This document shows positions 3,440 through 61,677 of a DNA stretch of 64,000 nucleotides, in pieces (the stretch's first letter is position 1; each line of letters opens with the position of its first letter). The notes beneath the pieces are model-generated. The model was not told the DNA's origin. It did not search any database and saw only the letters and a list, made by a program, of their open reading frames with translations. The stretch comes from Pseudomonadota bacterium (GTDB lineage Bacteria > Myxococcota_A > Polyangia > GCA-2747355). The stretch covers positions 192,683 to 256,682 of the forward strand of contig JADJDT010000008.1 in the NCBI GenBank assembly GCA_016702545.1, written 5' to 3'. A program made the translations under genes and the position numbers.

Positions 3440-5167
3440 CTACTTCTTGAACAGGCGTTCGAGGTTGGCCAAGGCGGCGGCCCGGGTGCCGGGCCGGGCG
3501 CGCGCGCCACCGGCGTCGCCCGCGCGCGTGGCGCCACCCTCGGCGGGGCCCTTGCGCGCCTGCGTGCGCAGGCTCATGGCGATGCGCCCCCGCGCCGCGT
3601 CGACCGACAGCACGCGCGCCGTGACCTGCTGTCCGATCGTGACCACCTCGGTCGGGTTGCTGACGAACTCGTCGGAGAGCTCGGAGACGTGGACCAGCCC
3701 CTCCTGGGCCAAGCCGATCGAGATGAAGGCGCCGAAGTGCGAGATGTTGGTCACGACGCCGTGGACCGTCATGCCGCCGCGCAGATCAGCGAGCGACCGC
3801 ACCATGGGGTTGAGTCGCGCGATGCTCGCGTTGCCCCGCGCCACCGGGACCCCGGGCTGCATCGGCCGCGCCCGCCGGCGCTCGAGGCGCGAGAGCTCGA
3901 TGGTCTCCGTCAGCGCCGCCCGCAGCCGGTCCGCGTCGAGGTCGCTCTGGTACTCGGCGAGCCCGATGCCCACCGGATCGACGGCGCACCATTCCTTGAA
4001 GGGGTCGAGGGCGCGGCGCGCGATCACCAGCGCCGAGGCGACCGCCGTGCTGAGGCGCAAGGGTGGTTGGACCAGCGGCTGACGGGCCTCGGCCAAGGCG
4101 GCCGGGCGGACCCGGACGAGCTGCAGCCCGGCCGCGTTGCAGGGCGCCTCGACGCTGTTGAGCAGCTCGGCGACCGGCGTGCTGGTCGGCAGCACCACCT
4201 GCGTCACGGCATGCTCCTGGAGCAGCGCGATCGCCTTCTCCTGCCATGGGCCCTGGGCCTTGAGCACGCGCTGCGCGATCAGGTCGCCGTCGCGCTCGGC
4301 GACCACCACCGCCACGGTCGGCGCTCCGCCCGAGAGCAGGTAGAGCGCGCCGACGCGCCGCGTCTGCAGCGGGGCCGTGCGCAGCAGGCCGTTGAGGCTC
4401 TCGCAGGCCGCCTGGATCGCCTCCTGCTCGGCCTCCTGGTCGAGCAGCGCCAGCACGCGCCGCGGCAGGTCGTCGAGCACCAGCTCCTCGAGCAGCGAGC
4501 TGTCACTGCGTTCGCTGACGGTCGGGCCGAGGTGCGAGCGGTAGAGCGCCGTCTGCTCCAGCAGCGCCGCCGTGGGCAGCTCGAGCTCGAGGGCCAGCAC
4601 CCGCGCGCGCTCACCGCGCCGCAGCGCCAGCCAGCGGTGCCCCGGCAGCTCACTCAGCGCCGTGGTCGTGCCGGCGAAGGCCTCGTAGGGGGCGGCCACC
4701 GGCGCGTCGGCGCTGAGCGCGCGGCAGCGGACCGCGCCCTGCTGGCGGGCCAGCCGCAGGCTCGCGCGCCAGAGCTCGACGCCCGCGAGCAGCGCCCGCA
4801 GCCAGGCCGGGTCTTCGAGCCCCTGCGCCGGCGGCACGAGCGCCGCCACGCGCACCAAGGCCTCGAGCTCGTCCGGGGTCTCGGTGGCGTCCAGCGCCGT
4901 CGGGGGCAGCGGCGGCTGACCGACCTCTTGGCGGCGCTGTTCGAGCTGGCCGCGGCGTTGGCGCCAGGCGCGCCAGGCGCGGCAGCTGGTGGCGAGCCGG
5001 CGCAGCGCCTCGACGGGCAGGTGGCCGAACTCGTCGCCGTAGTGGCTCAAGAGGTCCGCCACCGAATGACCGCGGCCGGTCAGCGTGGCCGCTTGCTCGG
5101 CCAGGATCTCGGACAGCCCGTCGAGCTCGGTGGCCCGGGTGGCCTGAAGGAAGCGCCAGAAGCTCAT
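3440..5167 (-). CDS. Tex-like RNA-binding transcription accessory protein (YqgF/HhH region plus C-terminal S1 domain)
   Basis: The C-terminal S1 motif is GMTVHGVVTNISHFGAFISIGLAQEGLVHVSELSDEFV...GQQVTARVLSVD. At 575 aa it is shorter than canonical Tex. Confidence 0.7.
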   Translation of the reverse strand: MSFWRFLQATRATELDGLSEILAEQAATLTGRGHSVADLLSHYGDEFGHLPVEALRRLATSCRAWRAWRQRRGQLEQRRQEVGQPPLPPTALDATETPDELEALVRVAALVPPAQGLEDPAWLRALLAGVELWRASLRLARQQGAVRCRALSADAPVAAPYEAFAGTTTALSELPGHRWLALRRGERARVLALELELPTAALLEQTALYRSHLGPTVSERSDSSLLEELVLDDLPRRVLALLDQEAEQEAIQAACESLNGLLRTAPLQTRRVGALYLLSGGAPTVAVVVAERDGDLIAQRVLKAQGPWQEKAIALLQEHAVTQVVLPTSTPVAELLNSVEAPCNAAGLQLVRVRPAALAEARQPLVQPPLRLSTAVASALVIARRALDPFKEWCAVDPVGIGLAEYQSDLDADRLRAALTETIELSRLERRRARPMQPGVPVARGNASIARLNPMVRSLADLRGGMTVHGVVTNISHFGAFISIGLAQEGLVHVSELSDEFVSNPTEVVTIGQQVTARVLSVDAARGRIAMSLRTQARKGPAEGGATRAGDAGGARARPGTRAAALANLERLFKK

Positions 5168-16632: not shown

Positions 16633-17028
16633 TCACGCCGCGAGCGAGGCGACGTGAGGATAGGCCAGGATCCGCTCGTCCGCTGTCATCAGCGTCAGCC
16701 CGCGATGGCGCGTGGCAGAAACCAATATCCGATCGGCGGGGTCCTTGTGGAAGGCGCCCGGGAGTTGGTACGCGCCGAAGGCGTCCTCATGGGACAGCTC
16801 GAGGGTCTGCGCCCCGAGCGCTCCGAGCGCGGCTCGCAGCCACGCCGCGAGTTCGAGGCGAAAGGACAGTCGGCCGCTGTCGGCCAGGCGCGCGAGCTCA
16901 AGCGTGGAGATGGTATGTACGAAGCGCTCGCGCGTGGGATCGAGCAGCAGCTCGCGGCTGGCGGCGCTCAGCCGGTCGGGATCCTCCTGGGACCAAACGA
17001 GCACATGGGTGTCGAGCAAGAGCCGCAT
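16633..17028 (-). CDS. vapC: Type II toxin, PIN-domain VapC family
   Basis: MRLLLDTHVLVW... (first acidic PIN residue), ...DPADRILVATA-like segment DPADRILVSATRHRGLTLMTADERI. Its ATG overlaps the antitoxin stop (TGATG). Confidence 0.85.
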   Translation of the reverse strand: MRLLLDTHVLVWSQEDPDRLSAASRELLLDPTRERFVHTISTLELARLADSGRLSFRLELAAWLRAALGALGAQTLELSHEDAFGAYQLPGAFHKDPADRILVSATRHRGLTLMTADERILAYPHVASLAA

Positions 17029-17258
17029 CAGGGCTCCTCCCAGTCGTCGTCCCATGCGCCATGCACGATGTCGCCCCGGATCTCGACCGACCCGCGCAGC
17101 GTCCCGAGTTGTGGTCGGTGCTCGGCCTCCGCACAGGGCTGAATCGTGACCATCGGCCGGCCGCGGAGGGTTACGGTCAAGGGGGTGCGGGAGCGCTGCA
17201 CCTCCTTCAGCATCTGGATGCAGCGCGCCTTGAACTCGGAGATCAGCACGGCTCGCAT
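17028..17258 (-). CDS. Type II antitoxin, Phd/YefM-like
   Basis: MRAVLISEFKARCIQMLKEVQRSRTPLTVTLRGRPMVTIQP is a typical prevent-host-death N-terminus. It lies directly upstream of, and is coupled to, the PIN toxin. Confidence 0.75.
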   Translation of the reverse strand: MRAVLISEFKARCIQMLKEVQRSRTPLTVTLRGRPMVTIQPCAEAEHRPQLGTLRGSVEIRGDIVHGAWDDDWEEP

Positions 17259-17268
17259 CGTCGCAAGG

Positions 17269-17292
17269 TGACCTGGTCTGAGGACCAGGTCA
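17269..17292 (-). promoter_or_regulatory. Probable TA operator: perfect 10-bp inverted repeat
   Basis: tgacctggtc-tgag-gaccaggtca lies about 11 nt upstream of the antitoxin ATG. That is the usual position for autoregulatory operators of type II TA loci. Confidence 0.5.
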
Positions 17293-17403
17293 AGTCCTGC
17301 GGACTGGCCGCGCCAGGGTCGAGGGCGGCGGAGGGGAGGTCGAGGAAGGTGACGGTTGGGGGCCCGCCCCACTGGGGCCGGGGTCAAAGGGCCCGGAGAC
17401 TCA

Positions 17404-18061
17404 CTAGTGGTAGTAAATCTTGACGGCGTCTGTCGCCAGTGCTTCGGCGCGTTCCGCGATCAACTTATCAAACGAATTTGAGCCTCCAATCCCGCCGCGG
17501 ATCGGGTCGTAGTCCGTGGGGAACTCCATGGGGCCGGCCAAGGGAAGTCCTTGTGCGTCGGCGGTCTTTGGGAAAAGGGTTCTTAACGCGATCAGCACCG
17601 CCTCCTTGGTTCCTCGCTCGACCACGATTTCTTCGCTACCGCCGGCCAGCCTCGAGCCCAAGGAGCGAACCGTCACGGGTTGGGCCAGAATGCGATCGGG
17701 GTTTACTAAGGGCGGCACTTGCCCGCTCTTCGTATCGAGAAGTGAGCCCAGATGGGCTCTCAGCGAGCCGAGGACCGGCGGAACGAGGTTCAAAACCGCT
17801 GCGACGGCGGCGTCATGCTCCGCCGGGTTGAGGCGACGACCAGTTGTTGCAAAATTCTTAAGGGCGAGACCTGTGTACTGCTTGATCGCCCTGTTCGCCG
17901 CATTGTTCGCATCGGGCCTTCCTTGAGTAGCACCAGCACGAGACTTCTCAAGCTGAGGCTCACTCGCCGACGCTCCCCACGGCATTCCCACCGCGGCCAG
18001 CCCCGCCACCGCCGCGACGATCCATGACCGACGCTGGGCGGCGCTGCACCAAAGGTTCTTC
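17404..18061 (-). pseudogene. Secreted hypothetical protein, 5' end separated from its start codon by an antisense group II intron
   Basis: The reading frame runs into the intron boundary, with the signal peptide ...KNLWCSAAQRRSWIVAAVAGLAAVGMPWGASA. No ATG/GTG/TTG lies between the boundary and the signal peptide. ATG plus RBS are found at 19997 and join in frame once 18062-19986 is removed. Confidence 0.6.
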
Positions 18062-19986
18062 GTGCGCCGGTCAAACCGGCGGGTTGAAAGGAATGAGAGA
18101 GTCCAACGGCGAAGGAGTAGCGAACCACGCCGGCCCCAAGCCGTGCGTCGGCGTCCGCAAGGGCGACGGCGAAGCGTCGGTAGGGGTACATGCGGGCCGG
18201 GTATTGAGCCGCGAAATCTCTGGACCGGCACGAGAGTGCCGGACACTCCAGGGCGCCCACGCTGTGGAGAAAGCGGAAGGCAACACTGGGAGCGTCGCCA
18301 TCGCGAGACGCTCTCGGGCCCTGCGCGGTCGGAGACCCCGTGCACGCATGGAATCAACCCGCGCGGGAACCGGGAGGTCCCAGCGCCGTCTGCGGCTCGA
18401 GGGCGCCGCAGACCGCATCGTGAAGCCCCAGGGCAGACGACGATGATGAACGGCGATGGGAAGTCGGACAGCTCCGTAGTACCCGAGAAGCCGCCGAACA
18501 AAGCCGGGCAACCGGCCGCGGAGGTGGTGGAGGGAAGGGGGCTGGCCAAGGGGAATCCGCCCGAGACCACCACGCACCGGACTCAGCGCCGGATGAGCGT
18601 GCCAAGCGGCCTCGAGCGGATACGGCATGCAGCAAGGAGGAACAGGAAGCAGCAGTTCACGGCGCTCTTCCACCACGTATACGACGTCGACCGCTTGCGC
18701 GCGGCGTACCTCGCGCTCAAGCGAGACGCCGCCGCCGGCGTCGACGGCGAGACGTGGCAGCACTATGGCGAGAACCTGGAGGCCAACCTCCAGGACCTCT
18801 CGACGAGGTTGGCGCGAGGAGCGTATCGGGCGAAGCCGGTTCGCAGGGCGCACATTCCCAAGGCGGATGGGCGGCTTCGGCCGCTCGGAGTGCCGACGCT
18901 GGAGGACAAGCTCGTCCAGCGCGCGGTCGTCGAGGTGATGAACGCCATCTACGAGACCGACTTCCTCGGTTTCTCGTACGGGTTCCGGCCGCGGCGCAAC
19001 CCGCATCAGCGTTGGATGCGGTCGCGGTCGGCATCAAGTCGAGGAAGGTGAACTGGGTGCTCGATGCCGACATTCGGGACTTCTTCGGTACCCTCGTCCA
19101 CGAATGGCTGGTGAAGTTCATCGAGCACCGAGTGAAGGACAAGCGCGTCGTGCGGCTCATCCAGAAATGGCTGGCCGCCGGCGTGCTCGAGGACGGAAAG
19201 CGAGTACGAAGCGAGGTTGGGACCGTCCAGGGCGGGAGCATTTCGCCTCTCCTGGCGAACATCTACCTTCACTACGTGCTCGACCTCTGGGTCCGACGAT
19301 GGAGGCAGACGGTAGCTCGCGGTGACGTCGTCATCGTGCGCTACGCTGACGACTTCGTCCTCGGGTTCGAGCATCGGCAAGAGGCCGAGCGGTTCCTCGC
19401 GGATGTCCGCGGGCGTTTCGCGCGGTTCGGCCTTGAGCTGCACCCCGAAAAGACACGGCTCATCGAGTTCGGCCGCTTCGCGGCGACCGACCGACGAGAC
19501 CGTGGCGACGGGAAGCCGGAGAGCTTCAACTTCCTCGGTTTCACGCATAGCTGCGCGAAGGCGAGAGCGGGTTGGTTCACCGTGCTACGGCAGACGATGC
19601 GTCAGAGGTGGCAGGCAAAGCTCCAGGCGGTCCGCACCGAGCTGAAGAAACGCCTGCGACCCCGTCCCCAAGGTGGGCGCGTACCTTCGGTCGGTCATCG
19701 TCGGTCACACGCGCTACTACGGCGTGCCCGGCAACGGTCCGGCCATTAACGCGTTCCACAAGGCCATCGCCCGGCTCTGGCACTGGATTCTCGGCCGCCG
19801 GAGTCAGACGGGCAACGTGCCGTGGGACCGGATGCGAACCTACGTTCGCCGCTGGCCCCAAGTCCTCGCATCTGCCATCCGTATCCTTCGCAGCGTCTTG
19901 CCGTCATGACCCAAGGCAGGAGCCGGATGCGGTAGTGCCGCACGTCCGGATCTGTGGAGGGGGTCGCGGGTGACCGCGATCCCTAC
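18062..19986 (+). mobile_element. Group II intron (about 1.9 kb) with intron-encoded reverse transcriptase/maturase
   Basis: The 5' end is GTGCG and the 3' end is ...CCCTAC (AY). A domain V-like hairpin GAGCCGGATGCGG-TAGTG-CCGCACGTCCGGATC at ~19920-19952 is followed by a short domain VI-like stem. The RT ORF sits about 380 nt from the 5' end. Confidence 0.85.
18443..19909 (+). pseudogene. Group II intron RT/maturase (IEP), frame broken twice in this sequence
   Basis: MMNGDGKSDSSVVPEKPPNK..., RT motifs RPLGVPTLEDKLVQ, SPLLANIYLHYVLD, VRYADDFVLGF, and maturase GHTRYYGVPGN. The reading frame is spread over track ORFs 18062..19051, 18754..19749 and 19673..19909, with shifts near 19005 and 19655. 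Confidence 0.8.
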
Positions 19987-20178
19987 TCCGACCTCATGCT
20001 CCTCTTCCTCCCCACATTCCGACTTGATGGGCTCGCCGTCACCGGCGAGCCGAGGGCGCCGCACCTGAGGTTCTTTTCCATGCTCGTTCTCCTCCCCACC
20101 AGCCCACCTGAGTTGGCTCGCCTTCAGCGGCGAGCGGTTGGCCGTATGCCAGCGGCAGGCGGCCCTGTCAACTGCTTT

Positions 20179-20269
20179 TGTGACTGCTTGTGACGCCAGC
20201 GCCATGCGGGCGTCACCTTCGCGTCACGCTCACGTCACATCGCGCCTTGTGGCCCCGACGTCACGTCGG
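20179..20269. repeat. Phased hexamer array: TGTGAC x2 (10-bp spacing), CGTCAC x3 (exact 11-bp spacing) and palindrome CCGACGTCACGTCGG
   Basis: Read directly: TGTGAC at 20179 and 20189; CGTCAC at 20211, 20222, 20233 and 20259; a 15-bp palindrome at 20255-20269. A related inverted repeat ACGTGAC-N6-GTCACGT lies at 20586-20605. Confidence 0.6.
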
Positions 20270-20752
20270 CCGTGGCCGCGCTCCTGGCCGGCCCTGCTGG
20301 AGCCCCTTGGGTCGCGTAGCACTTTGCCCCGGCGGCCTCCTTGCTCAGCAAGAGCTGGGCCGCGAGACGACGGGTTGGGGACCACGGGTAGGACGGCCGC
20401 CCGCAGCCGGCGCTGGAGGCCGGTTCATGCCATAGCTACGGGTGGTTGCGACCTCGCGTCCCGCGGATTGTGGGGCGGCGACGCTCGGCGGAAGGCTGGT
20501 GTCGTCAGGTGTTTCGATCGCTCGAAACGCGCGAACGCATCCGGATCTCGGAGCCGCGGCCGGCCGCTTCAGCCGGGGCCGCTCAACGTGACTTCTGCGT
20601 CACGTGCGGTGCGCTTGGCGAGGCAGGACTTGCAGCGCGCCCGCCGGAACGCGCGTCCCGCCGGGCCTCAACGCGCAAAGGGCCGGCCGGTCGAGGATCC
20701 TGGGTGTGACTCGGTGCTGGCCGGCCAGAGCAGGAGAGGGGTAGTGCGGCGC

Positions 20753-21715
20753 CTAGTCGCGCTCTCTGAAGTGGCTTGCGTCGTCAGTCGTGTACCCGCC
20801 GGGGCCGGAGACGAAATTCCCGCCCTGGATCGCAAGACCTCCGTTGGATGTCCGGCGCGGCGCGGATGGCGCGGGCACCTCAGCGTTGTCCGGAAGGAGC
20901 AGGGTCAGGGCTGGCCGGCTCACGCCGCCACCCGCCGACGGAGTGGCCGACAAGCCGCGTAAGCCACCCAGCGGCGGGAGGCAGACCTCTTGGGCCACAC
21001 TGTCCGAAACGCGCCACGCGAGCTCGCCGTTCGGGTGCACGGCGGAGCTTGCCCAGTCGCCGGTCGCGTCCAAACCCTGACGGCGTGCCTCCTCCTGCAC
21101 CGCGCGCAGCACCCAATCCGCCAGCCGACCCTGATCCATCTGCCTCATCACGTATCCCGCGCCCGCCCAATTCGCGGCCGTCCTCGCATCGCCCGACAGC
21201 CGGTCGCCAGGCGTTCCGTCGTCATGTGGGGAAGCGCGCCACTCCACGCCCCAATCCCCAAGCAAATAGGCGAGCTGTCGCTGGGCCCGGTCGAGCACGC
21301 CCGGCGCGAGTTTGGCGAGCGCGTCTACGGCGGCTGGATGCTTTTTCGCGTCCGTCGTGGTGCGTGCCGCCGCACGGTCGCCCCCAGTGCTGTGGTTCGC
21401 GAGCACGGGGAACAACTCGTACATCGTCTCCTGGCGCAGCGTAACGCCGTGCAACCCATTGCCCCCTGAGTTCCGAGGGACGGCCCGACGGTCGCTGCCC
21501 TGCCTCCCGCTTCGTACCCATCTCGCATGCGCCTCGGCGCGGCCAACCGCGCCCGCGAGGTGCTCCCTGTCGACTCTGACCAGCTCGGCCCCCGCGTGCG
21601 CGGGAAGCGCCAGGAGCCCGAGCCCGAGCGTCGTAGCTCGGAGCAGCCCGGCGCTCCGAGCGCTACGGCGATGGGCTGCTTGATTGTTTCCGTGACTGCC
21701 TCTCATGTTGCTCAC
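20753..21715 (-). CDS. Hypothetical secreted protein, paralog of the 17404 gene product
   Basis: Signal peptide RSAGLLRATTLGLGLLALPAHAGA. The segment KKHPAAVDALAKLAPGVLDRAQRQLAYLL aligns with AEHDAAVAAVLNLVPPVLGSLRAHLGSLL of the 17404 protein. No family recognised. Confidence 0.6.
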   Translation of the reverse strand: MSNMRGSHGNNQAAHRRSARSAGLLRATTLGLGLLALPAHAGAELVRVDREHLAGAVGRAEAHARWVRSGRQGSDRRAVPRNSGGNGLHGVTLRQETMYELFPVLANHSTGGDRAAARTTTDAKKHPAAVDALAKLAPGVLDRAQRQLAYLLGDWGVEWRASPHDDGTPGDRLSGDARTAANWAGAGYVMRQMDQGRLADWVLRAVQEEARRQGLDATGDWASSAVHPNGELAWRVSDSVAQEVCLPPLGGLRGLSATPSAGGGVSRPALTLLLPDNAEVPAPSAPRRTSNGGLAIQGGNFVSGPGGYTTDDASHFRERD

Positions 21716-58890: not shown

Positions 58891-60525
58891 TCAGAAGGCG
58901 TAGCCCAGCTCCAGCGTCGCCCCGGCGTAGATGTCCCGCGCGCCGACGGCCTGGCGGCAGCCGGTCTGACGCGGGGTGCAGCTACGATCGAAGGCCAGCT
59001 CGAAACGCCGGTACGAGCCCTCGACCCGGGCGAAGACCCCAGCGTAGGCGACGAAGATACCCAGGCTGCCATCAAAGGCAAGGATCGCGGCGTGGCCATA
59101 GCCGTTGCTGTTGGCCTGCTCGATCGGGCCGGCCGTCAACACGCCCAGGTAGTCGAGCCCGACCGTGGCGCCGAGCTCGAAGCGCCCCACCACGGCGAAG
59201 GGCCAGCGCAGCCCGGCCCCGGCGCGCAGATAGCTGTAGGCGAGGTCGACGGTCGGGTCGACGACCCCCGGGGGCGGCTCGGTGGTCGCCAGCTGGTACC
59301 CGTAGGCCGTGCGCAGCAGCAGCGCGGGGCTGTCCCGTCGGCCGAGCAGGCTCCAGTAGTAACGCAGGCCGAGCTCGACCGTTTGCAGCACGAGGGCGAA
59401 GGGCTGGTCCGGCGTCTCGGGGAGCGTGGCCGTGCCGGCGAGGGCGCGCCAGAAGCGGAGGGTCAGCCCGAGGCCCGCGATCGGCCGCTGCGTCCAGAAG
59501 GCCAGCGGCTGTAGCGCCGCGCTGAGGTGCAGCGCGGGCAGCAGCGAGGGCGTGCCGAGGGTCGGTGGTCGCGGCGGGTTGACCGGCTGCAGGAAGCGAA
59601 AGCCGCGAGCGAACAGCAGCACCCCTGCACCCAGCTCGAGTCGGGGGTAGATCGTCTCCTCGGCCGGTGCGGCGTCCGGATCTCGATCCCTCGCGCTCCC
59701 GCCGCCCTCAGGGGCCGCCCGCGTCAGATCGTGCGGGCCGCTGGACCCGCTGCCCACGGCGTAACCGAGCGCGGCGCGGTCGCTGGCGCTGCGCTCGATC
59801 GCCGGGCCTGGCGCGCCACGCGCCGGGGAGGTGCTACGCGTGGCCGGGTCGAAGATCGCGATGTCGCCCTCGCTGCGCTCGAAGTCGCCCCCGTCGTCGA
59901 AGGTCCCAGGGTCGTCGTTGGCGTCGCCACCGGCACCGGAGCTCGGGTCCGCTGCCCCCGCGTCCGAGGTCGTGTCCCTGGCGGCGGGGCCTCGCGCTCC
60001 ACCCGCGCCGCGCCGTCGCCGGGTTGCCGACCCGGCCGCACCGGCGCCGCCGCCTCGGCCGCCGGCCTGCCGCAGCGCGGTCGTGAGGCGTGAGGCGACG
60101 CGCGCGGCGGTCTCCTGATCGACCGCAGCGCTCTGCAGCGGGAGGCTGAGGCGCACCAGCCGCCGGTCGCTGGTGGCGCTGACCAGCTCGACGAGCAGCC
60201 GTGGGCCACTCGGCAGGATCGCGATCGCGCCGCGGACGATGGCGTCCACCCCCAGCATTCGGCTGGCCTGCCTCGCGCCCAGCCGCGTGGCCGTCCGACG
60301 GTAAGCGGCGGCGGAGACGATGCGTACGCCCCGCAGGGCGCCGCTGACGGCCGCGCTGGCGCGCGCACCCGCCGCGCCGTCGAAGACCAGCACGACCACG
60401 CCAGGCGGCCCGCCGCCGCTCGCCGCTGCGGCGCCGCCCCAGCCGGCGCAGGCTGCGATAAGCAGGGCGCGCACCAGGACGGTGCGCCGTCGACGAACAG
60501 GCGTCGCGTCGGCCGGCGCGTGCAT
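58891..60525 (-). CDS. Hypothetical outer-membrane beta-barrel protein
   Basis: Internal ATG of the 928-aa track ORF. Signal peptide RRRRTVLVRALLIAACAGWGGAAAA, a disordered Gly/Asp/Ala middle, and a beta-barrel-like C-terminus ending ATLELGYAF. Confidence 0.6.
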   Translation of the reverse strand: MHAPADATPVRRRRTVLVRALLIAACAGWGGAAAASGGGPPGVVVLVFDGAAGARASAAVSGALRGVRIVSAAAYRRTATRLGARQASRMLGVDAIVRGAIAILPSGPRLLVELVSATSDRRLVRLSLPLQSAAVDQETAARVASRLTTALRQAGGRGGGAGAAGSATRRRRGAGGARGPAARDTTSDAGAADPSSGAGGDANDDPGTFDDGGDFERSEGDIAIFDPATRSTSPARGAPGPAIERSASDRAALGYAVGSGSSGPHDLTRAAPEGGGSARDRDPDAAPAEETIYPRLELGAGVLLFARGFRFLQPVNPPRPPTLGTPSLLPALHLSAALQPLAFWTQRPIAGLGLTLRFWRALAGTATLPETPDQPFALVLQTVELGLRYYWSLLGRRDSPALLLRTAYGYQLATTEPPPGVVDPTVDLAYSYLRAGAGLRWPFAVVGRFELGATVGLDYLGVLTAGPIEQANSNGYGHAAILAFDGSLGIFVAYAGVFARVEGSYRRFELAFDRSCTPRQTGCRQAVGARDIYAGATLELGYAF

Positions 60526-60536
60526 CTCGCGCACCG

Positions 60537-61677
60537 TCAGCCGGGTTCGTCGCCGTAGGAGCCGGCGCCGGGATCGACCCAGTTGCGGGTGTCGGCGATG
60601 CCGCGGAAGTGGAGCGCGAAGTCGTCGGGGTTGGTGGCGTGGCGCAGCGCCACCTCGTAGGTCACGAGGTTCTGCTGCACCAGCTCGGTCAGGCTCTGGT
60701 CGAAGGTGACCATGCCGTAGGGGTGGCGCCCCTCGGCGATCGCGTCGTGGATCTCCGGGCGTGCGGGTCGGTGACTCGATCATCTCGCGCACGCGCGCCG
60801 TGTTGACCAGCACCTCGACCGCCGCCACCATGCCGCGACCGTCGGCCATCGGTAGCAGCCGCTGCGAGACCACGCCGTTGAGCACCGCGGCCAGCTGCAG
60901 CCGGACCTGGAGCTGCTGGTGCGGCGGGAAGGCCCCGGTGATGCGGTTGACCGTCTCGACCGCGTCGGTGGTGTGCAGCGTCGAGAGCACCAGGTGGCCG
61001 GTCTCGGCCGCGACGATGGCGATTTCGATCGTCTCCACGTCGCGCATCTCGCCGACCAGCACGACGTCCGGGTCCTGGCGCAGCGCGGCGCGCAGCGCGC
61101 GCGAGAAGGTGATGGTGTCGAGGCCCAGCTCGCGCTGATTGATCACGCTGCGCCGGTCGGTGAAGGCGTACTCGATCGGGTCCTCGATCGTGACGATGTG
61201 GCAGGCGCGCGTGCGGTTGATGTGGTCGATCATCGAGGCCAGCGTGGTGGACTTGCCGCTGCCGGTGACGCCTGTCACCAACACCAAGCCACGCGGCTCC
61301 TCGGCCAGTCGCAGGATCACCTCCGGCAACCGCAGCGACGCGAAGGCCGGCACCTCCGGGGGGATCAGCCGCAACACCATCCCGAGATTGCCGCGCTGGG
61401 TGAAGACGTTGGTGCGGAAGCGCAGCCCCTCCGGCGTGCTATAGGCCAGGTCGCACTCGCGGTATTGCTCGTAGTCCTTCTTCTGGCGCGGGCTCATGAT
61501 CTGCTCGCCGAACGCCTCCAGCATCTCGCGCGAGATCGGCGGCACGTCGCGCACGGTGCGCAGGTGCCCCTTGACGCGAAAGATCGGCGGCAGGCCCACC
61601 TTGAGGTGCACATCCGAGGCGCCCAGTCGGGCGGCGGCAGCGAGCACGCGTTCAATCGCTTCGACCATCGACTGCAA
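60537..61677 (-). CDS. pilT: Twitching-motility ATPase PilT, reading frame broken by 1 nt near 60756
   Basis: Walker A GVTGSGKSTTLASMIDHIN, DPDVVLVGEMRD and ETGHLVLSTLHT. After VREMIESPTRTP the conserved tail EIHDAIAEGRHPYGMVTFDQSL...ATNPDDFALHFRGI continues in the +1 frame to TGA at 60537. The span is 1141 nt (3n+1). Confidence 0.85.

Follow-up and report, generated by a model that had tools for sequence, protein, structure and literature searches.

A group II intron lying backwards at the start of an open reading frame: probable ectopic insertion into a mimic of a RayT-motif homing site

Introduction

How does a group II intron come to lie backwards at the very start of a gene, where splicing from the host transcript is not possible? 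The question is raised by a stretch of 64,000 nucleotides ("the window" in the following) on contig JADJDT010000008.1, which belongs to a 5.1-Mb metagenome-assembled genome (MAG; assembly GCA_016702545.1, here G000) of 52 contigs and 90% completeness. The intron lies on the plus strand of the window, antisense to a small open reading frame (ORF), and severs the body of this ORF from its ribosome-binding site (RBS) and ATG, as an initial annotation had concluded from the bare sequence. We consider it likely, with a probability of about 0.75, that the window copy goes back to an ectopic retrotransposition of an endonuclease-free intron into a mimic of a RayT motif, and thus to ordinary retroelement behaviour. 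The evidence comes from the exact ends of the intron, from a second copy inside a RayT-like transposase gene and from the pairing between intron RNA and the conserved motif of that gene family.

Results

Identity and ends of the intron

18062..19992, plus strand: complete group II intron (Rfam matches at both ends; 99% identical second copy; excision reopens the frames at both insertion sites)
18062..18066, plus strand: 5' splice-site consensus GUGCG (read directly; found in 14 of 16 relatives)
18098..18338, plus strand: ribozyme domains I-IV, 5' part (RF02005 covariance model)
19918..19992, plus strand: domains V and VI (RF00029 alignment; domain V at about 19920-19953, branch A at 19985, end GAC)
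19993, plus strand: first 3'-exon base C, the position of intron-binding site 3 (IBS3; C in both copies and in the four relatives with a mapped 3' end)

The plus strand of the window holds a group II intron with Rfam matches for domains I-IV and V/VI. RF02005 (group-II-D1D4-6) matches 18098-18338 with 165.4 bits (E 8e-49, gathering score 49, model positions 1-225 of 225), and RF00029 matches 19918-19992 with 42.7 bits against a gathering score of 40, so that the covariance-model check proposed with the initial annotation came out positive, as did its placing of the GTGCG 5' end at 18062. In the RNA this boundary reads GUGCG (18062-18066), and it is kept in 14 of the 16 aligned relatives. The 3' end had been placed at 19986 and has to be moved. 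Because domain VI has its bulged A at 19985 in the RF00029 alignment, and the model runs on to 19992, the "AC" at 19985-19986 is the branch-point A with its following C and not the splice site; the true boundary is 19992, reading ...CUACUCCGAC with GAC at 19990-19992. The two ends follow the GUGYG/AY boundary rule, domain V carries the AGC triad, and the bulged A of domain VI stands 7 nt from the 3' end (expected 7-8).

Both ends are set independently by a second intron copy at G000:C23:1959-3889 ("copy 2"), which is 99% identical over intron positions 1-1931. In an ungapped as well as a MAFFT comparison the identity begins exactly at 18062 and ceases at 19992/19993: on the left the flanks are unrelated up to ...TTCTTC|GTGCG, and on the right the identity stops at ...CCGAC|C. 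In four relatives from other genomes with a mapped 3' end the intron likewise ends in GAC and is followed by C, while four more relative fragments end in GAC or AAC with T or G at +1. The intron measures 1931 nt as assembled and about 1935 nt after allowing for three deletions in its protein gene. On these features of its sequence the intron is genuine.

The interrupted ORF and its start region

17404..18061, minus strand: body of the interrupted ORF, 218 codons plus stop (from translation; an orphan with a signal-peptide-like N-terminus)
19993..20013, minus strand: detached ORF start, ATGAG (19997-19993) preceded by RBS-like GGGGAGGAAGAGGAGC (from sequence)
20077..20160, minus strand: unoccupied repeat unit upstream of the ORF, in tandem with its start at a period of 84 nt and diverged from it (hairpin, RBS, ATG, first codons)

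Excision of 18062-19992 joins the minus-strand ATGAG (19997-19993) to GAAGAAC... at 18061, giving MRKNLWCSAAQRRSW... / MRKNLWCSAAQRRSWIVAAVAGLAAVG.... The rebuilt empty site thus reads GGGGAGGAAGAGGAGC ATG AGG AAG AAC CTT TGG..., in which GGAGG...AGGAG at 19999-20013 resembles an RBS, and it encodes a protein that starts with MRKNLW... (MRKNLWCSAAQRRSWIVAAVAGLAAVGMPWGASA|SE...). The insertion point separates nucleotides 5 and 6 of the ORF and so falls in codon 2. The in-frame rejoining described in the initial annotation stands, the two versions of the 3' end differing by 6 nt, whereas its insertion in codon 4 and its product MRSEKNLW are wrong by two codons. As assembled, the frame of ATG 19997 ends after MRSE at a TAG (19985-19983). 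The first in-frame ATG, GTG or TTG left of the intron is a GTG within the hydrophobic core, and the public gene call for the ORF is 201 aa long.

Whether a functional gene was hit is another matter, and the earlier label "secreted-protein gene" could not be confirmed. Searches of an index of 5.8 billion proteins, of 1.84 billion representatives and of 40 related genomes, the same genus among them, found no homolog of the ORF, and no family in Pfam or NCBIfam matched it. Its GC content by codon position is 0.65/0.52/0.69, a weak and strand-ambiguous pattern, and the third-position value (GC3) of 0.69 against about 0.94-0.96 in core genes marks the ORF as foreign to this genome. An AlphaFold2 single-sequence model is uninformative (pLDDT 37.7). 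It is therefore a possibility to be reckoned with, although we do not favor it, that the insertion is effectively intergenic: the "gene" would be a chance ORF in a foreign island of lower GC content, nothing functional would have been hit, and "codon 2" would be meaningless. The lack of homologs, the GC values and the AlphaFold2 model speak for this view. Against it stands a frame that is open over 220 codons within DNA of 63% GC and is also predicted by a public gene caller. Moreover, excision exactly restores the RBS and ATG, followed by a canonical N-terminus that is first positively charged, then hydrophobic, and of the AxA type.

The start region is also coherent in itself, as an RBS-ATG-xKNLxC unit is duplicated directly upstream. 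A direct repeat (19995-20027 and 20079-20111) recurs at a spacing of 84 nt, accompanied by inverted-repeat hairpins at 20031-20051 and 20115-20135, and the ATG of the duplicate (20081-20079) is in frame with ATG 19997 and opens the translation MEKNLRCGAL.... This adjacent 84-nt duplicate belongs to the case for a real gene.

Target recognition

18266..18271, plus strand: exon-binding site 1 (EBS1) GGAGAA, in a terminal loop (pairing and covariation)
18217..18223, plus strand: candidate exon-binding site 2 (EBS2) UCUCUGG, 43 nt upstream of EBS1 (pairing)
18042..18061, plus strand: 5'-exon target, positions -20..-1, with intron-binding sites IBS2 CCAAAGG (18049-18055) and IBS1 TTCTTC (18056-18061)

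A search for EBS/IBS pairing had been suggested with the initial annotation, and it yielded partners, in the case of EBS2 a candidate. EBS1 pairs with the window IBS1 at 6/6 positions including one G-U, and it is the exact Watson-Crick complement of TTCTCC, the IBS1 of the RayT consensus described below. The assignment is established by covariation between loop and exon. In a domain I alignment of 16 related introns from 14 genomes, in which each loop was compared with its own 5' exon and those of the others, 10 of the 16 cognate pairs are fully paired as opposed to 7 of 240 non-cognate ones (mean number of paired positions 5.56 vs 3.69). The candidate EBS2 pairs at 6/7 with 5'-exon positions -13..-7 in both occupied sites, the mismatch falling on the single variable position, and at 7/7 with the CCAGAGG variant of the RayT motif; its register shows compensatory changes in the closest relative of the intron (locus L007). 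The two occupied 5' exons, CGCTGCACCAAAGGTTCTTC in the window and CGCTGGCCCACAGGCTCTCC on C23, are identical at 15/20 positions, and three of the differences are T/C exchanges that are tolerated by G-U pairing. Taken together, EBS1 and the candidate EBS2 are exact complements of 5'-CCAGAGG-TTCTCC-3', after which comes a C; the full target can be written as CCAGAGGTTCTCC^C. The corresponding site in the 84-nt duplicate, GGTTCTTTTC^C, has a poor IBS1 and is empty.

A RayT-like transposase motif as probable cognate site

Copy 2 resides, again in antisense, inside a RayT-like gene, and its excision restores ...NAHWGRW|ESLWASEQ... in frame. A search of the genome with CCANAGGYTCTYCC uncovered 11 further unoccupied sites, every one of them inside the RayT motif and sharing the longer conserved sequence GCTGGCCCA(C/G)AGGTTCTCC^CAGCGGCCCCA; with up to 6 mismatches to the 30-mer consensus, the number of unoccupied sites rises to 18. 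The reverse complement of the conserved site codes for ...HWGRWENLWASE..., the GRWENLW motif, and the target is thus on the non-coding strand.

The gene family behind this motif has at least 19 copies in the genome and encodes proteins of about 299 aa; in paralogs, SNHLHIV is seen as the HUH motif and AVYTLTNPV as the tyrosine motif. NF047646 (REP-associated tyrosine transposase, REP_Tyr_transpos) matches with 36.3 bits (E 4.5e-9, profile positions 5-144 of 146), under its cut-off of 80, and Pfam Y1_Tnp with 14.9 bits, under its cut-off of 23. By these sub-cut-off profile scores the family members are distant relatives only. The family has 1548 homologs, several of which are labelled RayT or putative transposase by JGI, and among 99 of them the R of GRWENLW is kept in 97, the E in 98 and the N in 81. 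A PDB sequence search with the RayT-like protein gave no meaningful match. RayTs are usually single-copy genes. Because at least 19 copies are present here, the family looks like an actively multiplying element of the insertion sequence (IS) kind. RayT-like copies are spread over contigs C2, C5, C6, C11, C12, C16, C17, C23, C29, C31, C42 and C44 of G000; many of them are only a few kb away from a contig end, and frameshifts occur in several. The family is represented at L002 (789-1500 and 3432-3712, minus strand).

A bolder view, which we regard as rather doubtful, would have the intron lineage specialized on the non-coding strand of the RayT GRWENLW codons. Each homing event would then be a permanent, unspliceable knockout of a transposase, with the window copy as collateral at a mimic site, and one selfish element would hold another in check, more strictly than RmInt1 does ISRm2011-2.

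The window site itself agrees with the RayT motif at 16/20 positions of the 5' exon and in the C at +1. The similarity is confined to -20..+1 (beyond it, 24/60 positions agree further upstream and 13/60 in the 3' exon), and because the match is limited to the 5'-exon target and +1, the site is a mimic and not the relic of a RayT gene. It is the sole non-RayT look-alike that was found in the genome; from base composition we estimate that chance would yield about 0.8 such sites in 5.1 Mb. One may ask whether the roles should be reversed, the window site being cognate or equally good and the insertion into the RayT motif the ectopic event. The window IBS1, pairing with EBS1 at 6/6 (one G-U), indeed does better than the IBS1 of the occupied RayT copy with its 5/6. 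This reversal is nevertheless very unlikely, given that the consensus RayT sites, present in many copies, pair at 13/13 positions (Watson-Crick or G-U), whereas the window site is unique in the genome, fails to pair at one position of IBS2, pairs by wobble at one of IBS1, and is of a kind that chance alone would supply about 0.8 times.

The intron-encoded protein and the quality of the assembly

18443..19935, plus strand: reverse transcriptase/maturase gene (ORF pieces; no endonuclease domain; split into three frames as assembled)

In its assembled form, the window copy lacks an intact intron-protein ORF. The frame breaks near 19007 (-1), 19656 (-2) and 19856 (-1), in each case by a deletion that is private with respect to copy 2 and L007; copy 2 has private indels of its own at different positions, and the differences between the two copies are mostly indels of 1-2 nt. 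The frame-corrected consensus protein of 498 aa scores 351 bits with TIGR04416 (cut-off 300) and 126.6 bits with RVT_1. It comprises the reverse transcriptase (RT) blocks, the YADD motif, domain X and a tail of about 40 aa, and has no endonuclease domain. Its best annotated matches are unclassified "ltrA" genes with 56-62% identity on replicons of Variovorax, Ralstonia, Burkholderia, Pseudomonas and Sinorhizobium. Where the corrected frame ends (19915-19935), its final 7 codons and TAG stop overlap the 5' strand and loop of domain V, and the same is true of L007.

The three frameshifts could be due to decay or to assembly error alike. The pilT gene of the window (58891-61677, minus strand) is frameshifted as well, near 60756 after ...VREMIESPTRTP. 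The rpoB gene, which lies outside the window, shows no break over its 1410 codons. The pilT frameshift and the intron indels together suggest indel errors in the assembly.

Could the whole arrangement then be an assembly artefact, in which a repeat-induced misjoin set an intron copy between unrelated flanks? A MAG of 52 contigs with visible indel problems invites the thought, as do intron copies that differ chiefly by such short indels. We give it hardly any credence: a misjoin would have to unite the flanks to the nucleotide as RBS, ATG and signal peptide, the flanks mirror the adjacent 84-nt duplicate (ATGGAAAAGAACCTC vs ATGAG|GAAGAACCTT), and the excision of copy 2 restores a RayT-like ORF in frame in the same manner.

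Orientation, strand and mobility

L007 in genome G070, minus strand: surroundings of the closest relative, comprising 3518-4705 and the ORF across the empty site (5' exon ends at 1500, 3' exon from 3436)

The antisense orientation had been called atypical for group II introns, a view that we do not share. Copy 2 lies antisense too, and so does the closest relative L007 (82% DNA identity, intact 498-aa intron ORF), which sits backwards in a truncated tyrosine-recombinase/integrase-like remnant (Phage_integrase, 26 bits) that follows a class I/II aminotransferase gene on its downstream side. Of 301 genomes sampled from the same class, 69 carry related introns. That the whole lineage inserts in antisense as a rule was considered and rejected, as the flanks of 15 relatives are a mixture of sense, antisense and non-coding. 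Among the relatives at 82-90% identity, EBS1 loops and targets are different ones and none sits in a RayT motif. In a literature search we found no tabulation of sense versus antisense insertions for bacterial group II introns. Ectopic insertion sites are known to look like the homing site (PMC2435150). Because targets are chosen by RNA-DNA pairing whatever the strand of the gene, and the cognate site lies on the non-coding strand, the orientation calls for no special explanation. The antisense relation is a by-product; pairing and the replication strand set the orientation, and the gene strand does not.

Introns without an endonuclease such as RmInt1, which reads its target over positions -20 to +5 and has IS elements as homing targets, favor the lagging-strand template (PMC5894124, PMC4424553). 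Both copies studied here are on the G-rich strand (skew +0.034 and +0.059). On contig C8 the GC skew of the plus strand is above zero in 32 out of 33 10-kb bins, this strand bears 62% of the gene-like ORF length, and C23 shows positive GC skew over its first 30 kb; at 11 of the 18 free RayT sites the intron-sense strand is on the C-rich side. The pattern is consistent with a replication-fork model, but two insertions prove nothing.

An antisense copy of a group II intron cannot be spliced from the host mRNA and disrupts its host unconditionally (PMC3898094). The probable inactivation of the host proposed in the initial annotation holds in so far as the intron is unspliceable in this orientation; a null allele would result only if the ORF is a gene. 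That the backwards intron has been co-opted, an antisense read-through or an outward promoter keeping the host ORF expressed, might be thought of in view of L007, where one antisense frame has a single stop across the whole 1935 nt, but this is scarcely conceivable. In the window the frame of ATG 19997 stops after 4 codons, and a scan of 17000-20400 detected no sigma-70-like promoter; the long antisense frame ends with TGA at intron nucleotides 10-12, out of frame with the host ORF, and is a shadow frame of the kind commonly seen opposite sense ORFs of high GC content. The antisense frame of L007 (1510-3453, minus strand) amounts to 647 aa, spans the intron from an ATG 18 nt outside it and is in register with the intron-protein codons; the same frame in the window is broken exactly at the three indels.

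Genomic surroundings

A pair of genes for a PIN-domain toxin and a Phd/YefM antitoxin (16633-17055 and 17028-17249, both minus strand) directly follows the interrupted ORF downstream, within a lower-GC stretch at about 14-22 kb that resembles an accessory island. On the other side, an ORF of 320 aa (20753-21715, minus strand) has a signal-peptide-like N-terminus and no Pfam match. Paralogy between this ORF and the interrupted one was considered but is not supported, BLASTP giving only 17/48 identities (E 0.01).

Discussion

An ectopic retrotransposition would account for the locus as follows. The intron RNA would select its DNA by pairing EBS2 UCUCUGG and EBS1 GGAGAA with the motif 5'-CCAGAGG-TTCTCC-3' and a following C. 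Its cognate homing site would be the non-coding strand of the GRWENLW codons in the RayT-like HUH/Y1 family, which makes it lie backwards to its host by construction. The window copy would have retrotransposed into the sole look-alike outside the RayT genes, tolerating one G-U and one mismatch in the pairings, and it would be a matter of chance that this site parts nucleotides 5 and 6 of an orphan ORF which runs on the opposite strand. The mobility pathway was probably reverse splicing into the single-stranded template of the lagging strand at replication forks, with nascent lagging-strand DNA as primer, as shown for RmInt1. As a consequence, the host transcript would bear the inert complement of the intron and the ORF body would be placed 1.9 kb from its RBS and ATG, which would mean a null allele if the ORF ever was a gene.

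Several points weigh against this account. Only 1 of 19 RayT-motif sites is occupied, a low share if the intron is active in homing; it may have arrived recently, its copies may be inactive, free sites may lie on the wrong strand for replication (11/18 are on the C-rich one), or occupied repeats near contig ends may have escaped assembly. The search for an intron-less allele, proposed with the initial annotation, was negative for both sites: the empty-site 27-mer and the 5'-exon 26-mer had no exact match in public metagenome and genome contigs, nor was such an allele seen in the protein search of 40 related genomes, and we infer an insertion, as opposed to the ancestral state, from the restored frames only. 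The host ORF may not be a gene. EBS2 remains a candidate, supported by two sites and one relative and not by broad covariation, and the GC-skew argument comes from two insertions and carries no statistical meaning.

With these points taken into account, we still prefer ectopic retrotransposition into a homing-site mimic. The locus may serve as a worked example of how a seemingly paradoxical backwards intron at a gene start can be read as ordinary retrotransposition to a mimic of the homing site. The annotation has been corrected in the ends of the intron, in EBS1 and EBS2 and in the frame of the protein, and the interrupted ORF has turned out to be an orphan. Modestly new is the nature of the cognate target, the non-coding strand of a motif that is conserved throughout a multi-copy RayT-like family. 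Should the intron be active, it would offer a natural system for endonuclease-free, replication-coupled homing and for interference between intron and transposon in a high-GC, delta-proteobacterium-like lineage.

Comparison with known systems

Group IIC introns, which target terminators or attC sites, are also small, lack an endonuclease domain and often lie outside of genes or backwards to them. The present intron differs from them in its full 6-nt EBS1 and its EBS2 candidate, in insertion sites that share 13-20 nt of sequence, and in the lack of a stem-loop directly before the insertion point. With the Ll.LtrB targetrons it has in common that an antisense insertion is a non-conditional knockout, as the complement cannot splice (PMC3898094); Ll.LtrB, however, is a IIA intron with an endonuclease domain, whereas we are dealing with a natural event and an intron that has no such domain. 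Classes E and F (IIE/IIF) are similar in build. The ribozyme, with 382 nt ahead of the ORF and 57 nt behind it, is compact and IIB-like and falls within or just below the 450-700 nt that these classes have when the ORF is not counted; domain V may be drawn with a 5-nt loop (UAGUG), an EBS1 and a candidate EBS2 are present, and an endonuclease domain is missing (PMC3753933, PMC3552965). Such features point to a putative IIB-like class E/F intron and away from IIC.

A close parallel in behavior is provided by RmInt1 and RmInt2 of Sinorhizobium meliloti, class D introns that home into ISRm2011-2 and ISRm17. They likewise encode RT and maturase domains only, read a target of about -20 to +5 mainly through EBS/IBS pairing and have their cognate site in the gene of a multi-copy transposable element; ectopic copies at look-alike sites and an IS blocked by the insertion are further common traits, as a replication-linked strand bias may be (PMC5894124). 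The intron described here belongs to another lineage: its protein has 498 aa instead of 419 aa, the best match in S. meliloti is 56% identical, and the ribozyme is smaller, with about 435 nt outside the ORF. Its target, in contrast to theirs, is the non-coding strand of a RayT-like Y1 motif, from which it follows that the insertion is never spliced from the transposase mRNA.

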